64,000 nucleotides of DNA from an uncultured archaeon (lineage in GTDB: Archaea; Aenigmatarchaeota; Aenigmatarchaeia; GW2011-AR5; JAHLMP01), in NCBI GenBank assembly GCA_964428495.1, contig CAYRXY010000003.1, forward strand, positions 9,588 through 73,587, given 5' to 3'. The position numbers and the translations under genes are program-made. Shown one piece after another: positions 7,174 to 48,564 of the stretch. Below the pieces are notes generated by a model. That model saw only the letters and a list, made by a program, of their open reading frames with translations. It did not search any database and was not told the DNA's origin. How positions within the stretch are numbered: position 1 is the first letter of the stretch; every line of letters begins with the position of its first letter.

Positions 7174-8118
7174 CTACTCTATGAATTTTTTCAACCCATT
7201 CCCATTGATTGTACTATCTCTAAGTGTAAATTCACCACTTCTAAATCTTTTCATTACCGATTCAATTTTTGCATCTTCTAATTTAAACTTCTTAAGATCT
7301 TTCACGGGGCATGAAATCAAGTATGTTTTATAGTGAATAGAATAAGGAATTCGTACGATTCCATTAATTCGATTTATTGCATAATCTATTTTAACACTAC
7401 TCGGTACTTTTACCTGTTTACTAATTTCTTTTATAAATTCTCGTGCTCGCTCAAATTCAATCGGTTTAGAAGGTTTGATCCAAATATGAAATCCGCGAGA
7501 ACCTGAAAATTTTGTAGCAAAGTTTATTTTTTCATCCTTCAAAATCTTTTCTATTTCTATTGTGACCTTCTTAGTTTTTTCTAGCTCACCATCAATGTCA
7601 AAAACAATCCAGCTTGCTCTATTACTACCAATTTCATTTAGATATGCACCAAAATCGAGACCGTGCATATTTATCCAGAAGAAAAGTTCTTTTTTGTCTC
7701 TTATTTGAATTAATTTGCCTTTGAATTTCCTTCGAAAAATTACCTGCGCTGTAAATATCTGACGGACAGCAACGTATCGATTAGACAAAAATTTCAGTAT
7801 CTCATTAGAGACAACTTTGTAATATTTCTTTGCTTTCCAAACAAGTAAGTATGTAGGATTTAACTTTTCTTCATCAATCTCATTGTACCTCTTCTCCCAT
7901 TCTTTCCTTCCCTTTTCAGTAGCACGATATGTATCATTTTTCCATTCAACAAATCCTTCTTTTACTATCCTATCAAGTATATTCCTAAGCTCCTCTTCAG
8001 TAACTTTTCCGTAATCTCTCTGCAATTTTTCAAGAATATGTTTGAACGTAACAAACTTCGTTTCCCTCTTCATTGAAAGCATGAGAAGAATGTGATCCTC
8101 GATTGTTGGCTCACGCAT
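7174..8118 (-). CDS. Archaeo-eukaryotic primase (AEP) superfamily protein with N-terminal winged-helix domain (PriS/prim-pol-like)
   Basis: Motifs IVFDIDGE and FSGSRGFHIWIKP resemble the catalytic DxD and SGxRGxH motifs of PriS and LigD-Pol primase-polymerases. The N-terminal 90 aa are wHTH-like. Overlaps XPF by 8 nt. Confidence 0.5.
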   Translation of the reverse strand: MREPTIEDHILLMLSMKRETKFVTFKHILEKLQRDYGKVTEEELRNILDRIVKEGFVEWKNDTYRATEKGRKEWEKRYNEIDEEKLNPTYLLVWKAKKYYKVVSNEILKFLSNRYVAVRQIFTAQVIFRRKFKGKLIQIRDKKELFFWINMHGLDFGAYLNEIGSNRASWIVFDIDGELEKTKKVTIEIEKILKDEKINFATKFSGSRGFHIWIKPSKPIEFERAREFIKEISKQVKVPSSVKIDYAINRINGIVRIPYSIHYKTYLISCPVKDLKKFKLEDAKIESVMKRFRSGEFTLRDSTINGNGLKKFIE

Positions 8119-12253: not shown

Positions 12254-12392
12254 GGGCCGGTAGTCTAGTGGAAGGACGCCGCCTTCGCAAGGCGGAGATC
12301 CTGGGTTCAAAGGTACATTAGTGGGTTTGACATACAGAATATGTTAATTATCATTTTACTCCACTAATGATCTGAAAGTCCCAGCCGGTCCA
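12254..12392 (+). tRNA. tRNA-Ala (CGC) with a 67-nt non-canonical intron in the T-loop
   Basis: Acceptor GGGCCGG/CCGGUCC with the G3:U70 alanine identity pair. Anticodon arm CCGCC-UUCGCAA-GGCGG. T-stem CUGGG...CCCAG is interrupted after UUCA(A) by an insert containing a 9-bp hairpin (CAUUAGUGG/CCACUAAUG). Discriminator A; CCA not encoded. Confidence 0.7.
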
Positions 12393-13828: not shown

Positions 13829-14746
13829 ATGATCTACGTCATCGGTCACAAAAATCCCGATACTGATTCGATATGCTCGGCAATAGCTTATGCGAGACTG
13901 AAGAACAAACTTGGAGAAGGTGAGTTTGCCCCTGCAAGGTGCGGCGCCATAAACCCAGAGACAAAATTCGTCTTGGAAAAGTTTGGCGTTGAAGCACCAG
14001 AAGTTTTAGAAAATGCTTCTGGTAGAGAGTTAATCCTTGTTGATCATAACGAATTTTCTCAAGCAGTTGATGGGATTGAGAACGCTAAAATAGTTGAGGT
14101 TGTCGATCACCACAAAGTCAACTTCAACTACAGCGAGCCAATTTACTTTCTTGTTAAACCGCTTGGTTCAACTGCAACAATAATAGCGGAGAAGTACTTT
14201 GAAGCAGGCATTGAACCAGAGAAAGAGATAGCTGGTATACTTTTAGGTGCAATCCTCTCTGATACGGTCGTGTTTAAATCACCAACAACAACAGAAAAGG
14301 ATAAGGAAATAGCGAAAAAACTTGCTGAAATTGCTGGCATCGATGATATTGAAAAGTTCGGTATCGAAGTCAAGAAGGCAAAATCGAATCTTGAAGGAAT
14401 GAGCGAAGAAGAGATTATCAAAGGGGATTTCAAGGAGTTTACTTTCGGTGATAAGAAGGTTGGCATCGGTCAAGTTGAGATTGTGGATTATGATCAGGTC
14501 AAAGGGAGAGAAGATGAAATCATTAGTGAGATGGAGAAAATGACAGGAGAAGGTTATGATTTGGTCATGTTAATGGTTACTAACATCATGGATGAAAGTT
14601 CACTATTATTAGTAGCTGGTAATATTGTTAAGGTTGAAGAAGCATTTGGTAAGAAGGTGGAGAATGATCGTGTATTGTTACCAGGTGTAATGTCAAGAAA
14701 GAAGCAGGTTGTACCAAAAATAGAGGAAGCATATAAAACTCGATAA
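13829..14746 (+). CDS. ppaC: Manganese-dependent inorganic pyrophosphatase (family II, DHH/DHHA2)
   Basis: N-terminal MIYVIGHKNPDTDSICSAIAYA and DHH motif VVDHHK. 305 aa. Confidence 0.85.
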   Translation: MIYVIGHKNPDTDSICSAIAYARLKNKLGEGEFAPARCGAINPETKFVLEKFGVEAPEVLENASGRELILVDHNEFSQAVDGIENAKIVEVVDHHKVNFNYSEPIYFLVKPLGSTATIIAEKYFEAGIEPEKEIAGILLGAILSDTVVFKSPTTTEKDKEIAKKLAEIAGIDDIEKFGIEVKKAKSNLEGMSEEEIIKGDFKEFTFGDKKVGIGQVEIVDYDQVKGREDEIISEMEKMTGEGYDLVMLMVTNIMDESSLLLVAGNIVKVEEAFGKKVENDRVLLPGVMSRKKQVVPKIEEAYKTR

Positions 14747-14821
14747 TCAATAGGAAGAAATATTAGCTGAGATGGAAAATTGGCTTATGCTTGGTTGGTC
14801 CACTAATGGTTTGGTGATTCC

Positions 14822-15124
14822 ATGGAAATGAAGAAAATTCAAGAATTCATACAAAAAAATAAAATTACGCCACGAGACTCATTATATCATACATGGCGTG
14901 AGGTGAAGAACAAGGAAGGAAAATATACTGGAAAGATTCGAATTATTGTTCTCAAAAAAGATAAGATTGCTCGCTGCGAGTACACATGCCCTGAATGCAG
15001 TTATTATGGCTATGTCGAGAAGCCATGGAAAAGACCATTTTCCGTTAAATGTGAACACTGTGGATTTTTGATCCGTGTACCAAGGCTGAGAGATGAGGTA
15101 AAGAAAGATAGGAAAGCTAAATAA
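14822..15124 (+). CDS. Small Zn-ribbon protein (two CxxC pairs), function unknown
   Basis: CPEC...CEHC within 100 aa, with a basic C-terminus. Confidence 0.4.
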   Translation: MEMKKIQEFIQKNKITPRDSLYHTWREVKNKEGKYTGKIRIIVLKKDKIARCEYTCPECSYYGYVEKPWKRPFSVKCEHCGFLIRVPRLRDEVKKDRKAK

Positions 15125-15126
15125 AT

Positions 15127-15936
15127 TTATAGTTCACTCCTAAACTTCTCCAACGCCTTCTCTTCGAGCTCAACTTCCTCTTTAGAAATTTCTTTTATTT
15201 CCTTACTATCAATGATCGTGAAATATCTTATCGGCTTGCCAAGTTGCTTTGCAAGTTTTATCTCTGCTAATACGCCATCACTGACCGGACCAAAGACCCA
15301 GAACTCATCAGAGACTCTTAACAAATTATTGTTCGCATTTCTAATTCTATCTCTATCGACCGTATCAAGAAGAAAATAATCAAAAATTCCATATTGAGAT
15401 ATTGGAGTGTATCCCTGTTCCAATACAAACTTTACTGCATGCCTTCTAAAGTAGAAGTAATGTTTAGATAAGCCGATGAAGACAATTTTAGTTTCTTTAT
15501 TTTGATTCAATGCTGGATGAAAAAACGAAGATTTATATACTTCTATAATCTTTTTACTAGGTGTATATAGATCTTCAGGCAATTCATCTATTTTAAACCA
15601 TCTCCACTCAATAATTTCATCAGACTCCATTATCTTTGCTTCTCCTTCAAAATCGTCGCAAACATAACCAAAGGTTATGAAATGGGCGTCTGGTAAAATT
15701 TCTTCTGTAATGCTTATCCTCCTTAACCTTTCTTTATTAATTCTTATTCCTGTCTCCTCTAAAACTTCTCGAAAGCAAGCATCGATCAAACGTTCACCAA
15801 ATCTTACTTTCCCACCAGGCAAAGTCCATGTATTTTCTCCATGTAGTGCGGTTTTTGAAGGGTCCGGACTTCTTTTCCCTAGTAGTATTTTTCCGTTTTT
15901 TACGAGAAGAATTCCAACCCCTACACCGAATTTCAT
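15127..15936 (-). CDS. Nudix hydrolase fused to a nucleoside 2-deoxyribosyltransferase-like (SLOG/Rossmann) domain
   Basis: N-terminal Nudix box GGKVRFGERLIDACFREVLEETGI. C-terminal about 120 aa has the pattern IVFIGLS...DEFWVFGPVSDGVLAEIKLAKQLGKPIRYF, typical of NDT/DNPH1-like domains. Confidence 0.6.
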   Translation of the reverse strand: MKFGVGVGILLVKNGKILLGKRSPDPSKTALHGENTWTLPGGKVRFGERLIDACFREVLEETGIRINKERLRRISITEEILPDAHFITFGYVCDDFEGEAKIMESDEIIEWRWFKIDELPEDLYTPSKKIIEVYKSSFFHPALNQNKETKIVFIGLSKHYFYFRRHAVKFVLEQGYTPISQYGIFDYFLLDTVDRDRIRNANNNLLRVSDEFWVFGPVSDGVLAEIKLAKQLGKPIRYFTIIDSKEIKEISKEEVELEEKALEKFRSEL

Positions 15937-37499: not shown

Positions 37500-37796
37500 A
37501 TGAAAGGTACAAGTCTACCGGTAAATTCTATAGTAATAATAGCATTGGCAGTAATTGTACTTGTTGCGATCGCCGTTTGGTTTTCGTCAGAAATGCTTCA
37601 CGGACAGAAACAGGTTAACGCCGAGCAGGCATGGGTAAGTGCGTGCAATCAATGGAAAGCTACAAACTGTGATGCAGGACATTTTAACAACACATTAACA
37701 GGATTTCCAGGTATTTCTACTATAAAGGAAGCATGTAAAGCTGCAAGAGGATCAGATGATGCTGACCTATGTAAAAAGCTTTGTTGTGGAGAGTAA
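37500..37796 (+). CDS. Prepilin-like protein with class III signal peptide and Cys-rich C-terminus (paralog B)
   Basis: MKGTSLPVNSIVIIALAVIVLVAIAVWF. C-terminus CNQWKATNCDAGHF...CKAARGSDDADLCKKLCCGE. Clear paralog of 36122-36412. Confidence 0.55.
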   Translation: MKGTSLPVNSIVIIALAVIVLVAIAVWFSSEMLHGQKQVNAEQAWVSACNQWKATNCDAGHFNNTLTGFPGISTIKEACKAARGSDDADLCKKLCCGE

Positions 37797-40240: not shown

Positions 40241-40280
40241 AATGGCTTAGAATTATAAGTCTTCTCGATAAATTTATATT

Positions 40281-40356
40281 GCCCCCGTGGTGTAGTTTGG
40301 ATTAACATGCCACCCTGCGGAGGTGGAGATCCTGGGTTCGAATCCCAGCGGGGGCA
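40281..40356 (+). tRNA. tRNA-Arg (GCG)
   Basis: GCCCCCG-UG-GUGU...ACAU-G-CCACC-CUGCGGA-GGUGG-AGAUC-CUGGG-UUCGAAU-CCCAG-CGGGGGC-A. Confidence 0.85.
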
Positions 40357-40372
40357 TGAAGAGATTAATACC

Positions 40373-40918
40373 TCAAGATTTCCTATGATAAGTTTTTTTA
40401 TTTTTGTTTCTTATTTTAATTAGGTATCGGTTCAATTCTTCGTAAAACTTTAGCAGTTCATTCATATTTTTTGTTTTTGACTTAACATATTCTATTCTTT
40501 CTTGAACCGTATGATGCTCTATTTTATCTACATAAACAACCGAAACTTCACAATTTTCAAACTCATTTACAGGAAATATAGGAGCCAAAAATTTATCAAA
40601 GGTAGCATCTATTAACTCATTATCTACTTTTAATGCAAGATGATATCGCTCTGGAAGATTTTTTGAGAGATTTTTCAAGTGCCTATTAAGAAATTCCTGA
40701 TCTTCCCAGTAAAAAATATAAGTTAGATATAAGACCTTCGATCCTAATTTTTCATAAAAATTCCCAAGATATAAATGTTTAGAAGTACAACCAGCTTTTT
40801 TGTGTATTTTTAAACTTTCAATAGCTTTTTGATAGTCTATAGATGCTCCAAACACAATTTCAAAAGGTATATCTCTCACTTCTTCGAACATCTTCTTTTT
40901 ATATTCATATGTATTCAA
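40373..40918 (-). CDS. Hypothetical protein
   Basis: 181 aa with no recognisable motif. First gene of the AT-rich segment after tRNA-Arg. Confidence 0.35.
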   Translation of the reverse strand: MNTYEYKKKMFEEVRDIPFEIVFGASIDYQKAIESLKIHKKAGCTSKHLYLGNFYEKLGSKVLYLTYIFYWEDQEFLNRHLKNLSKNLPERYHLALKVDNELIDATFDKFLAPIFPVNEFENCEVSVVYVDKIEHHTVQERIEYVKSKTKNMNELLKFYEELNRYLIKIRNKNKKTYHRKS

Positions 40919-40996
40919 TTTTTACACCTTTAATGGGTGTAAAGTGTCAGATGTATTCTATAAATAATAAGTATGCAATAAAATAAAATTTTATTT

Positions 40997-41650
40997 ATGA
41001 GAATCATCAAAAATGCCTGGAATATGGAGTTTAAAAGAAAAGGGAAAATTTGGGTTAAACCTCAAGAGGATATTCCCAAAATTATTAAAAAATGGAAAAA
41101 GGAAGGAATAAAAAAAATTCTAGACTTGGGATGTGGTACAGGCAGGCATCTGGTTTACCTAGCTAAGAATGGTTTTGAAACCTATGGATTCGATATTTCA
41201 CGTGAAGGTATAAGAATTGCTAGTAAATGGCTAAGAGAGGAGAGACTAAATGCTAATCTAAAAGTAGGTGATATTTGCAGAAGATTGCCGTATAAAGATG
41301 ATTTTTTTGATGCAATAATTTGTATTAAAACATTAAATCATGGAAAAATAGAATGGATAAGAAGAACCATTCAAGAAATGTATAGGGTTTTGAAACCAGG
41401 AGGATATGTATTTGTTACTGTTCATAAACATAAAAGTAAAAAACAAATACCAAAAAATAGATTATATGGAATAAAATGGATTGCGCCAAGGACTTATATC
41501 ATATTAGACGGCCCTGAAAAGGGGCTTCCTCATTATAGATTTAACAAAAAAATTTTAATTAAAGAATTTAGAAAATCAAAGTTCAAAATTTTAGATTTAT
41601 GGCTAGATTCAACTAATTATTATTGTTTATTAGCTAGAAAATTATCCTAG
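40997..41650 (+). CDS. SAM-dependent methyltransferase (class I Rossmann)
   Basis: Motif I ILDLGCGTGRHLVYLAKNGFETYGFDIS, with post-I and motif II following. Confidence 0.7.
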   Translation: MRIIKNAWNMEFKRKGKIWVKPQEDIPKIIKKWKKEGIKKILDLGCGTGRHLVYLAKNGFETYGFDISREGIRIASKWLREERLNANLKVGDICRRLPYKDDFFDAIICIKTLNHGKIEWIRRTIQEMYRVLKPGGYVFVTVHKHKSKKQIPKNRLYGIKWIAPRTYIILDGPEKGLPHYRFNKKILIKEFRKSKFKILDLWLDSTNYYCLLARKLS

Positions 41651-42112
41651 TACGTCTTTTAGCTTAAATTCATTTCCATTAATAAAATAGAACGAACTTC
41701 TATCCTGCGATAAAATTCCCACAAATTTTACATTTTTATAAATAGAAAATATTTTTGCTACATAAAAACGAACTCCTCTTTTCTCATTTGGTCGAAGATC
41801 AACCTTTTTAACTAATAAAACTCTACAAATTCCTATAAAGTTTGATTTTTTATCTAGAAAATGAAAACCATCATGAAAATTATTTGAGGTAGATAATTTT
41901 ACAAGCATTCTAGCAACATAATCAATAGTTGTATTCTTATTTATTTCCTTTAGAAATTTAGATTCCATTGATGGTCTTAACGAAAGAGTCAATTTTTTCA
42001 TTACATCTTTTGTAGATATTACAAATCCTAATCCGTGAAAATTTTTTGAATGCTTCTTAGAGAGTTGTGTACACTTTTTAAGTATTTTTATTCCAATTTC
42101 TTCAATTACCAT
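41642..42112 (-). CDS. Hypothetical protein with weak resemblance to DisA_N/diadenylate-cyclase fold
   Basis: FHDGFHFLD and GVRFYVAKIFS line up loosely with the DAC motifs hDGAvii and GtRHRAAlgiS. The resemblance is speculative. 156 aa. Confidence 0.3.
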   Translation of the reverse strand: MVIEEIGIKILKKCTQLSKKHSKNFHGLGFVISTKDVMKKLTLSLRPSMESKFLKEINKNTTIDYVARMLVKLSTSNNFHDGFHFLDKKSNFIGICRVLLVKKVDLRPNEKRGVRFYVAKIFSIYKNVKFVGILSQDRSSFYFINGNEFKLKDVLG

Positions 42113-42678
42113 TTCTCCAACACCTTTCTAATTTCGAGATAAAACTTACTCAAATTTTTAGGTCTAGGAAGCTTTCTTTTTCCCTTTGGCTCTATAAATA
42201 CTCTCATAAAAATTGGTCCTTCTTTATTTAAAGCCTGTTCTAATCTTTTTTCAAAGACTTCTCTATTTTTTACTGAGTTATAAACTTTGTATCCAGCTAA
42301 TTTTGCCATTTTTTCTAATTCTATATTAGAAGAATAAGTTTTCATTCCCCCGGTAGAAAAATATACCCCATTATCCAAAACTATGTGTACAAGATTTTTT
42401 GGTTTTGTGCTTCCTATGGTACAAGACCCACCGAGATTCATCAAAAAACTTCCATCACCATCTATGCTGATAATTTTAACATTTGGTTTAGAAAAGGCTA
42501 TACCTAATCCAATAGACGCTACCAGTCCCATAGAACCAGCCATATAGAAATGTTTATCATATTTAGCTATTTCAAACGCTTCTCTACCTATTAATCCAGT
42601 TGTTGTTATGACTATTGCCTTCATTTTTTTAATTTTACTAAAAATGATCTTTAATACCTCTCTACGTTTCATCATCAA
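42106..42678 (-). CDS. TPP-dependent decarboxylase beta subunit (ComE / sulfopyruvate-phosphonopyruvate decarboxylase C-terminal-half-like)
   Basis: TPP-binding motif GSMGLVASIGLGIA...IDGDGSFLMNLGGSCTIG...LDNGVY. 190 aa. Confidence 0.7.
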   Translation of the reverse strand: MMMKRREVLKIIFSKIKKMKAIVITTTGLIGREAFEIAKYDKHFYMAGSMGLVASIGLGIAFSKPNVKIISIDGDGSFLMNLGGSCTIGSTKPKNLVHIVLDNGVYFSTGGMKTYSSNIELEKMAKLAGYKVYNSVKNREVFEKRLEQALNKEGPIFMRVFIEPKGKRKLPRPKNLSKFYLEIRKVLEKW

Positions 42679-43214
42679 AATACACCTCTCTTTATTATTA
42701 GAGCTACTGGCCTATTTTTTTTCTCCAGGCTTTTATTAGCCCTATAAACAGAACTTTTTATTGTAGTTGGTGAAATAATGTAATATTTTATATTTAGCAG
42801 TGACAAGATTGGAAGTGTAATTTTCCCATCAATTAAATGATGGGTCGCATCTTCTCCTTTACATCCTCTCCAGGTTATCAGAAATATAACTGGTATTTTA
42901 TATGAAAGAAGTAATGATGAAATATCATGTATTGAATTTAAGAAACCAGAGTTCTGCATATAGATGACAACTTTATTTCCAGCCATTGCTGCTCCCGCCG
43001 CAATTCCTATGGCCTCTCCTTCTCTAATCGCTGGTATATGGAAAATATTCTTATTTTTTTCAATTTCCCTGATAATATATTTTTGTACTGCGCACGGTAC
43101 ACCTGTTGCGAAGTTCACATTCACTTTAACTAAACTCCTTACAAGCTCTTTTGCCCTTTTCTTCCTAATAACCCCTGATAAAGGTTTGTAGGTGACTCCC
43201 TTCAATTTTTTCAC
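42675..43214 (-). CDS. TPP-dependent decarboxylase alpha subunit (ComD-like, pyrimidine-binding half)
   Basis: VNFATGVPCA...IPAIREGEAIGIAAGAAMAGNKVVIYMQNSG. 179 aa, with a 4-nt overlap to the beta subunit. The first M overlaps the upstream gene by 50 nt, so the start is uncertain. Confidence 0.7.
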   Translation of the reverse strand: MKKLKGVTYKPLSGVIRKKRAKELVRSLVKVNVNFATGVPCAVQKYIIREIEKNKNIFHIPAIREGEAIGIAAGAAMAGNKVVIYMQNSGFLNSIHDISSLLLSYKIPVIFLITWRGCKGEDATHHLIDGKITLPILSLLNIKYYIISPTTIKSSVYRANKSLEKKNRPVALIIKRGVF

Positions 43215-44262
43215 CTTTAAATTTTGTATACCATAATCCTCTATAATTTTCCCATAATTTTGGTCTTAAATCAGTATCCTCAAAAATATTCTCGAATATC
43301 ATTCTAGCATTTAAAAAATAATCTAACCTTTTAGCGTCTTCATGTCTTAAAAGTTCAAATGATGGGTGATATGCTTGGAATATATTAATTACAGGAAATC
43401 GTGTCAATACCTTCTTAAATTTTTGAAATGCATGAGAAATACTAGAAAGACTATCCAATCCAAGTACATATAGTAATGACGTCTCAATTCCTTTTTTTCT
43501 TAAATTGTTTAGAAATTTAACCGTCTTCTCTACATTAAAGGCTGCGAAATATTTTTTTCTTTTGTCAATAAAATCTCTTCGTTCAAGAGTTTCCAATGTA
43601 AAATAATAAGAAAATTTTGGAATGATTTTAGATATTTCCTTTAAATTACTTTTATTTCTTAGCTGGGCCCCAATATATTTAATTTCACCTTTAAAGTTCA
43701 TGAGTGAAGCAGCTTTATAAATTGAAATTAAATGTGTAAATAACTTTTTTTCATTCTCAAACAAACCAGTATTAAGACATATCTCTTCCAGCTTTGAAAA
43801 TTTTATTTTGGCTGTTTCTTCAATTTTTTCAAATAATTTCAAAATTTCTTTAAACTCTAAAAATTTTCTTTTAGACCTAGGTGTTTGATATTGAGTACCA
43901 CAAAATGTACATTTTCCTATACAATGACTTCTATCATTAGTATTTAATACTAGAACCTTTTTTTTCTTTCTAAAATAATATAGTTCAACTAGATCATTTT
44001 CAAATTTCTTCAAACTTCCAATCATATATTCTCCTAAATGTATTTTTGACTTAGTTAAGTAAAATGGAGTTTGAGATGTATTCAAACATATCATTAAATA
44101 AAAAGTTTTATTTATAAAATTTGGAGTGAAATACGACCTTATTCTTAAGAATTTTAGAGAACTCTTTGCTCCTAAGGTATTTAGTGATATTAAGCAAGTA
44201 TCAGTATCGGGAACGTTATATTTCTGTGAATAGTATTTAAGATTCTTTATATTATCTATCAC
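43165..44262 (-). CDS. Radical SAM enzyme, unknown specificity
   Basis: CIGKCTFCG (CxxxCxxC) at residues about 114-122 of the listed ORF. The true start is probably at an internal Met (about 44025). Confidence 0.6.
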   Translation of the reverse strand: MIDNIKNLKYYSQKYNVPDTDTCLISLNTLGAKSSLKFLRIRSYFTPNFINKTFYLMICLNTSQTPFYLTKSKIHLGEYMIGSLKKFENDLVELYYFRKKKKVLVLNTNDRSHCIGKCTFCGTQYQTPRSKRKFLEFKEILKLFEKIEETAKIKFSKLEEICLNTGLFENEKKLFTHLISIYKAASLMNFKGEIKYIGAQLRNKSNLKEISKIIPKFSYYFTLETLERRDFIDKRKKYFAAFNVEKTVKFLNNLRKKGIETSLLYVLGLDSLSSISHAFQKFKKVLTRFPVINIFQAYHPSFELLRHEDAKRLDYFLNARMIFENIFEDTDLRPKLWENYRGLWYTKFKGEKIEGSHLQTFIRGY

Positions 44263-44306
44263 ACTTAATATATGCCAAAAAATTTTATATTTTTATTAGA
44301 AATTTA

Positions 44307-46346
44307 TCAGGACAAATTCACAGATCCAAATATCATTAATGTAAAGCCGAGAGTTAGAAAGTACATAATGGAGCCGAACCAAAGAATATGAAATATTAAA
44401 TTGTTCTTTCCGATTTTATCCTCACCATTTTGAATCCCGTTTATTAGAGTCCCTACGATATAGGAAGTTAGAATGAAATATATAGAAGACACGAGCTGAA
44501 ATTCCCCTTGTGTAATTTCTAGTTTACCCCACGGTAGAATTAACATGCTAGAAGCATATGTTCCCATAAGTTCTTGTCCGGTAAACTTTGTTGCTATTTG
44601 ATTTATTATATTTATCATAAGGTTTGAAAGCGTTACAATAACACCAGAAACTAATGGAGTCAAAATGTATCCCTGAAGCTTTAGAGCACTGACTATATCC
44701 TCTAAGAGATCGCTTATTCTTTCTTGTGTCTGATGTACATCATAGAGATATCTAGAAATACTCAACATCGCAGAGGCTGCAGCCTGTACACCTTTAGACG
44801 AAACATCAGCAACAGTCCTCATTATTGAATTGATTAGAGTAGATGGATAATAAAGAATAGCACCATATTCTGGATCAAATATAGCCTGTCGAAAAGTCAT
44901 TCCAAGTCTTTTTATGTTTCTAAGAATAATAACAAAGAATTTTTTTATGCTAAGGTTACCTATTGCGTGTATCAGCCTTTCTATTGCAACCTCTAATGGC
45001 ATTCCGGTAGAAAGATAATTTCCAAGTTGAAATAGAGCCTCTGTGAATTCTTCTTCTATTTTCCTTATTTCATTTCTCAATTCTATTCTTTGGAACGATG
45101 AAAGATAAAAATAAGATATTGATCCAACAATAAGACCAAAAGAAATTACTATAGATTGAAATAGATTATTCTCATCGGCCGCTGTAGCATTTATATAGAG
45201 ATGAGAACCGAAAATTATGAAAGGTAAAGCAACCAAAATTGAAAATGGTAGGACGGGAACAAAGTATTTCTTTTTTCCAATTCTTAAGGCAAAGGTCCCT
45301 TCTGGCGGCATATCAGGATGATGAACCGGTCTTATCTCACTAAACGTTGTCGGTCTTCTAGAAAGAATTTCAGAAACAAAAAACATAAGTGCAATTGGGA
45401 GAATTCCATCAAAACCTATGAATAGTATGGATGATTTTATCTTCATAAATATACCCAATACAGGAAATAGAACCATTCCTATGACTGGCAATAGAATTCC
45501 AAGAGCATGAAGAAGCATCACAGGTATTTTAAGTTCTTGTGAATAATGCTTGGCTTTTTCACTTGTTCCATCAAGCACTATCTTAACAGCTTCATCCAGC
45601 ATCTTTAGTCTTCTTTCCTCGGGTTGTGCTAATGCATTCCTTAGTGTTTGAACTGCCTCTATTATATACCGCTCTTCCTTCCATCTAGACAAATATTTCA
45701 TTAGTGCTTCATCAATATTTTCATACTTACCAACTTCAACATCCCATAAAATTTTTCTCATATCATTTGCTAATGGCCCTACGAGATTTCGAGCAGCGAA
45801 ATCAACTGCTCCTTCAAGATTTGGCGACTGTCTTAAATAAACAACCATATACAAAATAAGGAATGGAATTTCTGTTCCTATCTTAGTCATGTATTTTCTT
45901 TTATAGGTTATAGGATAGGTGTACAGATAGTAAGAGAACAACAATTCAAATAATATTATTATAAGTGCATGATTCAACGTAATACCAAGCTTCAGTATGT
46001 TTGATACTACCACAACAACTAAGGTTAAAATAATTGAACTTAAAAGAAAGAGCATAGCAAGAGATGTTGCACCTTCAGGTGTAATCTTCATCTTGGTTAT
46101 CTTTATTGCATCTATCATCTTCTTTTTAGTTTTTTCATCTGGTTGAACTTTCATTATCTTCTCTGCAAATTCACAAGCCTTCTCGTAAACTGTGTCCTTC
46201 TTCTTTAACATCTCTTCCTCTTCTAAAAAGAGCTTGTATTCTCGAGAAGCAAACTTATATGCAGGGACTTCTAACTTAACGTCTGATTTTTTCTTCTCCT
46301 TTTTCTTTTTGAAGAACTTCTTAAACCAATCAAGCATGTTTACCAC
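44307..46346 (-). CDS. Polytopic membrane protein of type IV pilus/archaellum assembly platform type (FlaJ/TadC-like)
   Basis: 679 aa with several TM clusters separated by two large cytoplasmic loops. Overlaps the upstream secretion ATPase by 17 nt. Confidence 0.6.
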   Translation of the reverse strand: MVNMLDWFKKFFKKKKEKKKSDVKLEVPAYKFASREYKLFLEEEEMLKKKDTVYEKACEFAEKIMKVQPDEKTKKKMIDAIKITKMKITPEGATSLAMLFLLSSIILTLVVVVVSNILKLGITLNHALIIILFELLFSYYLYTYPITYKRKYMTKIGTEIPFLILYMVVYLRQSPNLEGAVDFAARNLVGPLANDMRKILWDVEVGKYENIDEALMKYLSRWKEERYIIEAVQTLRNALAQPEERRLKMLDEAVKIVLDGTSEKAKHYSQELKIPVMLLHALGILLPVIGMVLFPVLGIFMKIKSSILFIGFDGILPIALMFFVSEILSRRPTTFSEIRPVHHPDMPPEGTFALRIGKKKYFVPVLPFSILVALPFIIFGSHLYINATAADENNLFQSIVISFGLIVGSISYFYLSSFQRIELRNEIRKIEEEFTEALFQLGNYLSTGMPLEVAIERLIHAIGNLSIKKFFVIILRNIKRLGMTFRQAIFDPEYGAILYYPSTLINSIMRTVADVSSKGVQAAASAMLSISRYLYDVHQTQERISDLLEDIVSALKLQGYILTPLVSGVIVTLSNLMINIINQIATKFTGQELMGTYASSMLILPWGKLEITQGEFQLVSSIYFILTSYIVGTLINGIQNGEDKIGKNNLIFHILWFGSIMYFLTLGFTLMIFGSVNLS

Positions 46347-48564
46347 TTGATTTCAGCCATTCTAACCATCTCTTATATATTTCATTCGAGTCCAACTCCT
46401 CAAACTCTTCCAGAACTTTACTGGAAATCAAATGAAACTGATCATTAGACTTAACAACAAACTCTGCTTCCAAAATTTCTGGATTTTTCTTTCCATATTC
46501 TGCAAGTGTTTTCATTATTTTAGACCTCAACATTATATTGTCCCAGACCTTATCCCATCTTCCTTTCCATTCCCTGACACGGGAGGCTATCTCATTCAAT
46601 ACAAATGATTCGCCGATACTCAATGTTTCGGTTGGTCTCAGTTCATCCTCTTTTGCATGATACTCGAGCAAATCAACAAATCCCCCTTCAGTAAGAGGGT
46701 CTTCCTTCCAATGTTTTCTAACCTCTGTAAGTTGTATTACTCTTCTAAATGTTGTTAAGCCATCAGGAGATCTAAGTCTGTTAGCAATGACTATAATGTC
46801 CGTCGCCTTAAAGCTGGTGGGAGGTACCCCCAAATCATTAACAACTCTATCGTATACACCATAGGGAGAGTCACCGTGTATGGTACCTGCCACTACGTTT
46901 GCTAATGCACCAATACGCATAGCCTCATATAGCGCCTTTGCCTCCACACTTCGAACCTCACCGACAATCAAACACGAATCTCCTAAACGAAGTGCAGTTC
47001 TCAACGCCTCATCTGCAGGAAGTTCTATTTCTACTTGAGTTATAACACTTCGTGATTTCAATTGCTCAATATTATATCCAAGCTCTCTCAACTTTCTTAC
47101 TGGAAGTTCTAATGTATCTTCTAATGTTACGATTCTTGATTTTCTCATTATTTGAAGCATCATCGCACCTAACAATGAAGTCTTACCACTTGAACGAGTA
47201 CCAGCAATTAATATACTCCTTCCATTGTCAACTAAAAACCAAAGTAATCCAGCTGTAAATGGATTTATCATCCTATTTGATACGAATAGAGGAAATGTCC
47301 AAGGTCTTTCTCTATGTCGTCTTAAAGCAAATGCCAAACCTGTTGGTGAAAGTGTTCTCGTAATTGAACAGACTCTTGCATGACCTCCGGGTATAAAAAG
47401 CTCTGTATCGAGAACTGGGTTCGCCTCGTCCAATGGCCTTCCTGATAAAAGTCTCAATCTTGTCGCCCAAGATTCAGCATCCTCTCTACTAGGTATTAGA
47501 TTCGTCTCACACTCCTCAAAGTCGTTGTGAAAGATATATATTGGCGATCTACCTATAGGAGAGTTTACGGAAATATCCTGAATCTTTTCATCTGCAAGTA
47601 AAAGCTCTAAGATACCAAAACCAGCTGTATATCTAGTAAGTATTCGTGCAAGCAAATCTATCTTATCAGATGAAAGCCTTACACCATGTCTATTTGCCAG
47701 ATCAGATACCAAGTCCTTTGAAATGTTGTAAAAGGTTTCCCTCATCGTTTTTGGATCAGATAGTTCCGGTCTTCGTGGCTGGTGAGCTGCAAGATATCTC
47801 CTTGCAGCATCAAGTATTGTATATTCATCCTCTTCCAACCTAAATTCTGGTGGTAACATATGATAAAGATATCGAACCTTTCCAGGTAATCTAAAGATTT
47901 CTACGATTGATTCTCCAACCTTATAACGATAAACAAGCTCTGCATTTTCTGGTGGTATTGCAAGATAATAAGTGTACATAAAGTTCGGTCGAATTGTTGG
48001 ATGAAATATTTCTCGGTAGAATGATCTGTCCTTTATTGGTTTATCTAACACATCCTTAGCCAGTTCAAATATTTCACATCGATCGAGAATTTCCTTCATA
48101 GGAAGTAGAGCTTTTCTTAAGTACTTTGAATAACATTCTTGACATATACCTTTAGACCTTTCTAATCTCACTTTGACATGTCGAATTTCACGTATCAACT
48201 GTTTGTATGCATTCAAAGGATCATACTTAATTTGATCTACTAAATTTCTCAAAAAAGCATATCTAGTGGGAACACACTTATCACATCCTTTTACAGAAAT
48301 ATTTTCTAAAGAAATTAAACGCTTTCTCATTATCTCTTGAATTGCATCTGCAAGTTGAACTAGTAATTTTACTTGGGGATAGTCATACTCATATTCTCTT
48401 GTTTCAGCGAGGACGATTTTAGAAACCTTTTTTACTTCAAATAGCTTCTCAATTATTCTTCCCATACATACTTCGCTATCCTCTATACTTGCTCCATATA
48501 TGCAACCCAGACAGTTAATTCTCATCGTCTGGTTTTTATCATCGTAAGTATAATCACAAACCAT
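46330..48564 (-). CDS. Type II/IV secretion-family ATPase (FlaI/TadA/VirB11-like)
   Basis: Walker A LIAGTRSSGKTSLLGAMM, Asp box, Walker B/His box region DSCLIVGEVRSVEAKALYEAMRIGA...GTIHG. 744 aa. Confidence 0.85.
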   Translation of the reverse strand: MVCDYTYDDKNQTMRINCLGCIYGASIEDSEVCMGRIIEKLFEVKKVSKIVLAETREYEYDYPQVKLLVQLADAIQEIMRKRLISLENISVKGCDKCVPTRYAFLRNLVDQIKYDPLNAYKQLIREIRHVKVRLERSKGICQECYSKYLRKALLPMKEILDRCEIFELAKDVLDKPIKDRSFYREIFHPTIRPNFMYTYYLAIPPENAELVYRYKVGESIVEIFRLPGKVRYLYHMLPPEFRLEEDEYTILDAARRYLAAHQPRRPELSDPKTMRETFYNISKDLVSDLANRHGVRLSSDKIDLLARILTRYTAGFGILELLLADEKIQDISVNSPIGRSPIYIFHNDFEECETNLIPSREDAESWATRLRLLSGRPLDEANPVLDTELFIPGGHARVCSITRTLSPTGLAFALRRHRERPWTFPLFVSNRMINPFTAGLLWFLVDNGRSILIAGTRSSGKTSLLGAMMLQIMRKSRIVTLEDTLELPVRKLRELGYNIEQLKSRSVITQVEIELPADEALRTALRLGDSCLIVGEVRSVEAKALYEAMRIGALANVVAGTIHGDSPYGVYDRVVNDLGVPPTSFKATDIIVIANRLRSPDGLTTFRRVIQLTEVRKHWKEDPLTEGGFVDLLEYHAKEDELRPTETLSIGESFVLNEIASRVREWKGRWDKVWDNIMLRSKIMKTLAEYGKKNPEILEAEFVVKSNDQFHLISSKVLEEFEELDSNEIYKRWLEWLKSSGKHA

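Follow-up and report, generated by a model that had tools for sequence, protein, structure and literature searches.

In fosfomycin biosynthesis a cytidylyltransferase/PepM enzyme (Fom1), a phosphonopyruvate decarboxylase (Ppd; Fom2) and a radical S-adenosylmethionine (SAM) methylase (Fom3) act together on phosphonates that are linked to cytidine monophosphate (CMP), and in known phosphonate clusters pepM, the gene of phosphoenolpyruvate (PEP) mutase, normally adjoins ppd. Futalosine logic begins with an adenosyl-radical addition by MqnE, followed by deaminase and nucleosidase steps. DPANN archaea and similar ultra-small symbionts are credited with hardly any biosynthetic capacity, and low-GC small-genome lineages such as DPANN and the candidate phyla radiation (CPR) depend on nucleoside salvage. 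Two further systems are known from solved structures: RhiEF is a split phosphonopyruvate decarboxylase of rhizocticin biosynthesis in Bacillus subtilis (PDB 9IZ3/9IZ4; PMC12141560), and PanS is the synthase and minimal diadenylate cyclase (DAC) of Panoptoo, an anti-phage system (PDB 37jy; Ragucci, Haley and Kranzusch, bioRxiv 2026), with DGF and GGR as its catalytic motifs (bioRxiv 10.64898/2026.08.10.743927). We analysed a 64-kb stretch of contig CAYRXY010000003.1 from an uncultured archaeon (the window; all cassette coordinates are window positions), in which a block of six genes beside tRNA-Arg(GCG) encodes a radical SAM enzyme (rSAM), a split thiamine-diphosphate (TPP) decarboxylase (TPPalpha and TPPbeta), a protein assigned by profile match to the DAC domain, a class I SAM methyltransferase (MT1) and a predicted Cys-His-Asp enzyme (TGL). 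No description of this gene combination was found in a literature search. The reading that we favour, with a probability of about one half, is that the block is a mobile biosynthetic module of two sub-modules that would make some nucleotide- or sugar-phosphate-derived small molecule, and neither coenzyme M nor a PEP-mutase-derived phosphonate.

The six open reading frames (ORFs), with their strands and lengths, the CIGKCTFCG motif of rSAM and the tRNA-Arg(GCG) gene were all found as the initial annotation had placed them (Table 1). That annotation had described three translationally overlapping genes; the coupling is real and comprises four, since the 156-aa DAC gene belongs to it as well: rSAM and TPPalpha overlap by 50 nt, TPPalpha and TPPbeta by 4 nt, and TPPbeta and the DAC gene by 7 nt. 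The spacer upstream of rSAM is the presumed promoter of this four-gene operon, and the promoters of the TGL and MT1 genes presumably both lie in the divergent intergenic region between them, where no sigma-70 enrichment or terminator was found with a tool that does not cover archaeal promoters. The tRNA-Arg gene lies 15 nt from the TGL stop codon and forms the left edge of the AT-rich block. From 40373 to 44262 the GC content is 28.5% compared to a window mean of 35.4% (standard deviation of equal-length windows 2.1%), which is the minimum among windows of the same length over all 64 kb. At the gene level, cassette genes differ from the other genes of the window in both GC (0.291 vs 0.361) and third-position GC (GC3; 0.215 vs 0.306), with Mann-Whitney p values of ~3e-4 each. 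The AT-richness, which had been judged by eye, is therefore borne out. A 20-nt near-identical repeat (95%), at 40914-40933 and 43201-43220, spans the starts of two genes, TGL and TPPalpha; its coding-strand sequence is TTAAAGGTG(T/A)AAAAATTGAA, and it is probably a shared GGTG ribosome-binding and start context and not a recombination site. No riboswitches were found in the window and the 27 loci searched.

Table 1 Features of the six-gene cassette and its borders (window positions).
Feature	Position	Strand	Basis
tRNA-Arg(GCG)	40280..40357	+	ARAGORN; Rfam 62.7 bits
TGL, 181-aa Cys-His-Asp enzyme (formerly unk181)	40373..40918	-	predicted transglutaminase/arylamine-N-acyltransferase-like fold
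78-bp AT-rich divergent intergenic region between TGL and MT1 genes	40919..40996		read from sequence
MT1, 217-aa class I SAM-dependent methyltransferase	40997..41650	+	Pfam
156-aa minimal DAC/DisA_N domain protein (formerly unk156)	41642..42112	-	profile match to PanS
TPPbeta, 190 aa, TPP-binding C domain	42106..42678	-	Pfam, NCBIfam, RhiF match
TPPalpha, 179 aa, pyrimidine-binding N domain	42675..43214	-	Pfam, NCBIfam, RhiE match
rSAM, 365-aa radical SAM enzyme, motif CIGKCTFCG	43165..44262	-	cluster motif and structure model
44-bp AT-rich spacer upstream of rSAM start, with TATA-like AAAATATAAAA	44263..44306	-	read from sequence

The signature gene of the cassette is rSAM, a member of an uncharacterised radical SAM family. 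Its Pfam Radical_SAM match of 25.1 bits lies under the gathering score of 29.5, and the radical SAM identity given to the 365-aa protein by the initial annotation holds nevertheless on the structure model. The cluster motif is C114-x3-C118-x2-C121 (CX3CX2C), in which C114 and C118 are invariant and C121 is present in at least 90% of 57 sequences. In the AlphaFold2 (AF2) model (pLDDT 84.8, pTM 0.85) a partial TIM-barrel radical SAM core is confirmed, and Foldseek returned generic radical SAM cores only, with LipA (5e-6), PFL-AE, SuiB, BioB, viperin and also MqnE among the matches and a template-modelling score of ~0.45. The N-terminus forms a separate helix-plus-beta domain of ~106 residues with conserved Arg, Asn, Asp and Tyr. 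The family profile had no match among PDB sequences, and none of the NCBIfam subfamilies (CofH, MqnE, viperin, QueE, B12-class and others) scored above threshold, the best being CofH with 16.6 against 426; more distant relatives compared with NCBIfam likewise reached no named family. A word-indexed search found 12 relatives in 5.8e9 proteins, and an exhaustive profile search 319 representatives in 1.84e9 proteins. The metagenome scan was seeded with a 15-sequence rSAM subset, the 57-sequence alignment being too diverse as a seed. One homolog at 57% identity is labelled Nanopusillaceae; with the archaeal translation genes of the window, it points to a DPANN archaeon, probably of the Nanoarchaeota, as the source.

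The two TPP subunits matched Pfam TPP_enzyme_C (TPPbeta, 7e-17) and TPP_enzyme_N (TPPalpha, 2e-10). Among NCBIfam models, Ppyr-DeCO2ase (TIGR03297), which is the top match for TPPbeta, gave 174.9 bits for beta and 121.5 for alpha with a cut-off of 312.5 set for the fused enzyme; sulfopy_beta (TIGR03846) gave 143.6 bits for TPPbeta with a cut-off of 221.5, and sulfopyru_alph (TIGR03845) gave 125.1 bits for TPPalpha with a cut-off of 147.95. Neither subunit thus reaches the ComD/ComE or Ppd equivalog cut-offs. The nearest solved structure is RhiEF (alpha to RhiE 9iz3_A, E=2.7e-26; beta to RhiF 9iz3_B, E=7.2e-29). As far as such scores can place it, the pair belongs to the ComDE/Ppd clade, with RhiEF nearest to it, and not to the acetolactate-synthase clade; this agrees with the type of decarboxylase first proposed, short of the equivalog level. 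The cassette pair has in common with RhiEF and ComDE the two-subunit alpha/beta architecture and the NCBIfam clade. It differs from them in its sub-cut-off scores, in that neither a PEP mutase nor, among the flanking genes scanned with Pfam, a ComABC context turned up, in its coupling to rSAM and DAC, and in that it is swapped for a phosphoketolase-like enzyme in sister systems. The subunit genes are adjacent in the window and form a single fused alpha-beta protein in two relatives (L013, L014).

Two proteins had been left as unknowns by the initial annotation. Both are present, and both can now be assigned. For the 156-aa protein, a profile of five family sequences matched PDB entry 37jy_A, 'Panoptoo PanS synthase', with E=4.3e-14 over 141 of 154 positions. 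Residues H80-D81-G82-F83, G113 and R115 are the same in all 6 sequences compared, and the HDGFH and GGRY segments of PanS align with H80-D81-G82-F83 and G113-x-R115, respectively. Pfam DAC was matched by three of the five members (E down to 7.5e-4), below the gathering score. Judged by these alignments the protein is a minimal DAC domain of the PanS type, and it is a candidate nucleotidyl-transferase or cyclase. Like PanS, it consists of the DAC domain only, has ~150 aa and keeps both the DGF and the G-x-R motif. Unlike PanS, it occurs in an archaeal host, has V, T or A in place of the middle Gly of GGR (G107), and is accompanied by no PanE S2TM-beta partner; it is instead operonic with, and often fused to, methyltransferase (MTase), HAD and TPPbeta proteins.

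The second former unknown, TGL, belongs to a family of 19 proteins in 5.8e9, in which C44, K47, H48, H93, D104 and D108 are invariant over 18 sequences. There was no meaningful sequence-level match to Pfam or PDB families. In a Foldseek search with the AF2 model (pLDDT 96.1), the top 29 PDB matches all came from the arylamine-N-acyltransferase (NAT)/transglutaminase (TGase)/GdmF/PNGase superfamily, the best with E 8e-3 and probability 0.99. The model therefore suggests a transglutaminase/arylamine-N-acyltransferase-like fold, in which Cys, His and Asp are invariant, and TGL is a candidate acyl-transferase or amidase that probably serves a tailoring or release step. It resembles NAT1/2, the GdmF amide synthase and TglA in fold and in the order of its Cys, His and Asp, and differs from them in length (181 aa vs 250-380 aa in these relatives) and in lacking a sequence-level match. 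On a Gram-negative-type contig of 45% GC (L009 4430-7116), a TGL homolog stands beside a B12-binding radical SAM gene, a 53-aa ORF and YjbQ, downstream of a MacB/OEP exporter and with no TPP or DAC genes there. MT1 matched Pfam Methyltransf_25 (4e-24) and Methyltransf_11 (2e-22), which upholds its first description as a class I SAM methyltransferase; from these domains it is taken as a generic class I SAM enzyme of the small-molecule type. MT1 is 64% identical to its counterpart in an Aenigmatarchaeota locus (L017 8473-9123) and 74% to a partial one (L042 9040-9351), and rSAM in the same two loci reaches merely 33-36%, far under MT1. That MT1 is so much more conserved than its neighbours suggests that the sub-modules have separate histories.

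Relatives whose rSAM is 38-69% identical carry the conserved cassette in differing flanks (L002, L004, L007, L008, L011, L013, L014, L016, L017 and others), and every locus has its own neighbourhood, bar re-samplings of the same contigs. They include Nanoarchaeota-type contigs of ~30% GC (L002/L012/L018 and L004/L005), a metagenome-assembled genome (MAG) of Aenigmatarchaeota with a rearranged cassette (L017), a contig with bacterial-type flanks (L011; Peptidase_S11, class II aminoacyl-tRNA synthetase), one that carries a bacterial tmRNA (L032), and other contigs (L007, L008, L016). Taken together, the carriers are very small symbiotic archaea and low-GC lineages that are probably bacterial. 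The taxon labels of the MAGs (Methanosarcinales, Pseudomonadales, Bacilli) are unreliable. No genes outside the cassette are common to the window and L002, L004 or L017. A census of 63 distinct rSAM groups gave 25 of the Ppd type, with MT1 in 22, TGL in 17, DAC in 15, HAD in 10 and a second methyltransferase (MT2) in 9 of these 25, and 14 of a phosphoketolase type, in which rSAM is coupled to a TPP enzyme of the XFP family (Pfam XFP_N 1e-52) and HAD is present in 9; the other 24, mostly on short contigs, had no TPP gene in view. The relatives add MT2 and a HAD phosphatase, and the window copy is the minimal six-gene version. Several of the components are fused to one another or to further enzymes: DAC-MTase-HAD (L007), DAC-MTase (L011), TPPbeta-DAC (L016), HAD-DAC (L023/L024), MT1-FkbM methyltransferase (L023) and GrpB-rSAM (P0164, P0169, P0175), in addition to the alpha-beta fusions above. 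This suggests that the parts belong to one pathway. Recurrent or variant neighbours are adenosine deaminase, phosphoribosyltransferase (PRTase), LigT 2H phosphoesterase, PHP phosphoesterases and GrpB, as well as thymidylate/dN-kinase-like, GTP-cyclohydrolase-II-like, xylose-isomerase-like TIM-barrel and enolase-superfamily proteins, and a GT1 glycosyltransferase occurs in variant loci too, as does a PP-binding carrier protein. Because L034 carries both, we abandoned the idea of DAC and GrpB as substitutes that exclude each other.

In the reading that we favour, the first sub-module would be the coupled operon, running from rSAM through the Ppd-type TPPalpha/TPPbeta pair to the PanS-like DAC protein, and the second would consist of the class I methyltransferase and the NAT/transglutaminase-fold Cys-His-Asp enzyme. 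The Arg-rich N-terminal domain of rSAM may bind an anionic substrate, phosphorylated or nucleotide-linked, which a 5'-deoxyadenosyl-radical-initiated reaction would convert to a 2-oxo acid or ketone. The coupled TPP enzyme would then cleave a C-C bond, here by decarboxylation to an aldehyde and in other lineages by means of the phosphoketolase-like enzyme. The DAC protein could next perform nucleotidyl transfer through a 3'-OH/alpha-phosphate reaction, either building a (di)nucleotide scaffold or nucleotidylating the intermediate, and the methyltransferase and the Cys-His-Asp acyl-transferase or amidase would tailor or release the product. The recurrent nucleotide, sugar and natural-product neighbours argue for a product derived from a nucleotide or sugar phosphate. 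A biosynthetic module is favoured by the missing PepM motif together with the phosphoketolase in the TPP slot, and by the missing effector together with the DAC fusions. A more specific and rather doubtful version is that the DAC fold, whose known products have been limited to c-di-AMP and cUA signals, has been recruited as a biosynthetic nucleotidyl-transferase in a radical-SAM/TPP pathway to a new class of methylated, chain-shortened (di)nucleotide. Episymbiotic DPANN archaea and CPR-like bacteria would exchange this pathway laterally and perhaps direct its product at hosts or competitors.

Several points weigh against such a module. We infer its substrates and product from demonstrated fold and family assignments and gene linkage, and the order of its steps is conjecture. 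The census labels come from BLAST against our own reference set, and many of the contigs are short. One close relative (L098) has MT1-MT2-TGL, adjoined by genes of the GNAT, AMP-binding, CYTH, phosphodiesterase and HAD types, without rSAM, TPP or DAC genes within 10 kb; the two sub-modules are thus separable. Individual Foldseek E-values for TGL are weak (8e-3 to 0.5). The DAC-like family of the phosphoketolase-type loci is a weak match as well (hhalign probability 36%) and is without the catalytic Arg, and the closest characterised relative of the cassette DAC is an immune signalling enzyme and not a biosynthetic one. Finally, the TPP pair has its greatest similarity to RhiEF, which is a true phosphonopyruvate decarboxylase; the summed alpha and beta score of the pair for TIGR03297 (~296 bits) comes near the cut-off for the fused enzyme, and PepM could be encoded elsewhere in the genome, of which 64 kb are covered here.

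The last of these points are also the grounds for a phosphonate or sulfonate pathway, in which the TPP enzyme decarboxylates phosphonopyruvate or sulfopyruvate, rSAM and the methyltransferase tailor phosphono- or sulfo-acetaldehyde, and a nucleotidyltransferase activates it. RhiEF is the best solved relative, Ppd is the top NCBIfam model for TPPbeta, and the union of a Ppd-type decarboxylase with nucleotidyl transfer, radical SAM chemistry and methylation recalls the fosfomycin logic. We nevertheless consider this pathway unlikely. The PepM motif EDKx5NS and the ICL-family motif K[KR]CGH were absent in six frames from the window and 97 loci (~960 kb), which also bears out the earlier remark that the window holds no PEP mutase. 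The subunit scores stay under the equivalog cut-offs, in 14 groups a phosphoketolase-like enzyme is the partner of this rSAM family, and the neighbours are nucleotide and sugar enzymes and not phosphonate enzymes. Compared to fosfomycin biosynthesis the cassette has no PepM, its rSAM has no B12-binding domain (Radical_SAM was the only Pfam match), and its nucleotidyl-transfer fold is DAC and not the cytidylyltransferase domain of Fom1. The initial annotation's proposal of a sulfonate or phosphonate product is therefore not sustained, given the missing PEP-mutase motif, the low scores and the phosphoketolase swap. Its further suggestion, that the product decorates surface proteins encoded next door, is not supported either: pilus and surface genes are not conserved neighbours, and the cassette holds no glycosyl- or phosphonotransferase.

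To a similarly low degree we credit a second-messenger immunity system related to Panoptoo or CBASS, where DAC would make a cyclic-dinucleotide signal or decoy and the other proteins would modify it or act as antiviral effectors. The only characterised role of a PanS-type minimal DAC is anti-phage decoy signalling, the cassette is AT-rich, patchy and context-variable in the manner of defence islands, and viperins, which are immune nucleotide-modifying radical SAM enzymes, are represented among the fold matches of rSAM. However, PADLOC gave a generic methyltransferase match and no other defence model, and there is no PanE-like or transmembrane effector, as none of the six proteins has a transmembrane-like segment. 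The fusion partners of DAC (MTase, HAD, TPPbeta) are metabolic enzymes, and DAC is not detectable in 10 of the 25 Ppd-type cassettes. Variant loci contain the GT1 glycosyltransferase, the carrier protein and sugar isomerases and have the look of natural-product clusters, and no relatives were found in IMG/VR viral contigs.

A third alternative is salvage or catabolism, by which host nucleosides or by-products of SAM such as 5'-deoxyadenosine would be stripped of base and phosphate and the sugar cleaved by the TPP enzyme for the central metabolism of genome-reduced symbionts. The recurrence of adenosine deaminase, PRTase, phosphatases, 2H phosphoesterase, phosphoketolase-like enzymes and sugar isomerases would be expected of it, and low-GC lineages with small genomes (DPANN, probable CPR) make up most of the carriers. 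This explanation also seems improbable: tailoring and not catabolism is the function of the two to three methyltransferases, the NAT-like acyltransferase, GT1 and the carrier protein, the family is too sparse for core salvage (the 12 and 319 members counted above), and the window version has no deaminase, PRTase or phosphatase. There is a likeness to futalosine logic in that some variant loci combine rSAM with enzymes of the adenosine-deaminase-like and base-salvage kinds, and in that MqnE is among the fold matches of rSAM. Sequence kinship to MqnE is limited to the radical SAM core and there are no Mqn genes, and the likeness is an analogy only.

Returning to the favoured module, its mobility can be considered apart from its function. 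The GC content of the window cassette (28.5%) is like that of the relatives of ~30% GC and unlike that of its 35% host, which fits lateral acquisition; in L002 and L004 the cassette matches its flanks in GC (0.297 vs 0.307 and 0.309 vs 0.29, respectively). Composition and the patchy distribution across domains together support lateral acquisition, and they support the block being a real, horizontally mobile six-gene accessory cassette. This part of the initial annotation, namely foreign composition and an accessory or mobile nature, is upheld by the GC minimum, the sparse distribution and the differing neighbourhoods. It is very unlikely that the cassette is an integrative island targeted to tRNA-Arg by a site-specific recombinase, because, although it lies 15 nt from that tRNA with deviant composition and a tRNA is found within ~400 bp of a cassette border in L035, L042 and L014, no tRNA 10-mer or longer recurs near 44.3 kb, the block is not bracketed by repeats, EF-1alpha and pilus genes lie immediately on either side and the flanking genes scanned with Pfam include no integrase (EF-1alpha/EF-1beta/Ham1/TYW1/SerRS; T2SSF/T2SSE/ParA/HTH), 2 of 88 cassette borders are tRNA-adjacent with 0.8 expected (p=0.19), and the tRNA identities vary between loci (L042 and L014 being added by Rfam). 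In no relative does tRNA-Arg stand beside the cassette. The integration at tRNA-Arg that had been proposed thus finds no 3'-end repeat, no adjacent integrase and no tRNA linkage elsewhere, and related genomes without this linkage nevertheless keep the cluster.

Each cassette enzyme belongs to a known superfamily. The rSAM family, the obligate partnership of its members with a TPP enzyme and the presence of a DAC domain in an operon of metabolic genes all appear to be undescribed. The family has 319 representatives and no characterised member, and it is consistently partnered with a TPP-dependent C-C lyase; the cassette would also be the first in which a PanS-type DAC stands among metabolic enzymes and is fused to them. 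Given the small biosynthetic capacity attributed to such symbionts, a conserved and laterally exchanged six-gene enzymatic cassette is unexpected. Should the product indeed be a modified nucleotide, it might serve between symbiont and host as a new signal, antimetabolite or cofactor. The fusions offer an experimental handle, as one polypeptide carries two or three consecutive activities.

Some further observations concern the surroundings of the cassette in the relatives and in the window. In L058 (1-12514) a phosphoketolase-type cassette, rSAM-HAD-XFP-MT2, lies between bacterial 16S rRNA with tRNA-Ile/Ala and 23S rRNA, and thus inside a split rRNA operon. The L004 cassette, on a Guaymas contig, is surrounded by many small unannotated ORFs, and a 405-aa protein at 14054-15271 (-) has a primase-like motif and a weak RepB_primase match (E=0.0075); this region may be a plasmid, a virus or an integrated element. 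Type IV pilus-type genes flank the cassette in two loci of the Nanoarchaeota type, the window (44307-48564, -) and L004: the window has a T2SSF-like gene and a T2SSE ATPase, and L004 a weak Peptidase_A24 prepilin-peptidase match (7453-7854). L002 and L098 are without either. Away from the cassette, positions 37500-37796 (+) encode a 98-aa Cys-rich protein with no Pfam match, whose N-terminal hydrophobic segment MKGTSLPVNSIVIIALAVIVLVAIAVWF is like an archaeal pilin-type signal. At 12254-12392 (+) lies a probable tRNA-Ala(CGC) gene whose T-loop is interrupted by an intron of ~65-70 nt. Its 5' part comprises the acceptor GGGCCGG, the D-arm and the anticodon arm CCGCC-TTCGCAA-GGCGG and ends at ~12309, and its 3' part CCCAGCCGGTCC is at 12380-12391 and provides a G3:U70 wobble pair. 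The gene was missed by ARAGORN and scored 26.2 bits with Rfam, below threshold; its intron forms a perfect 9-bp helix (CATTAGTGG/CCACTAATG).

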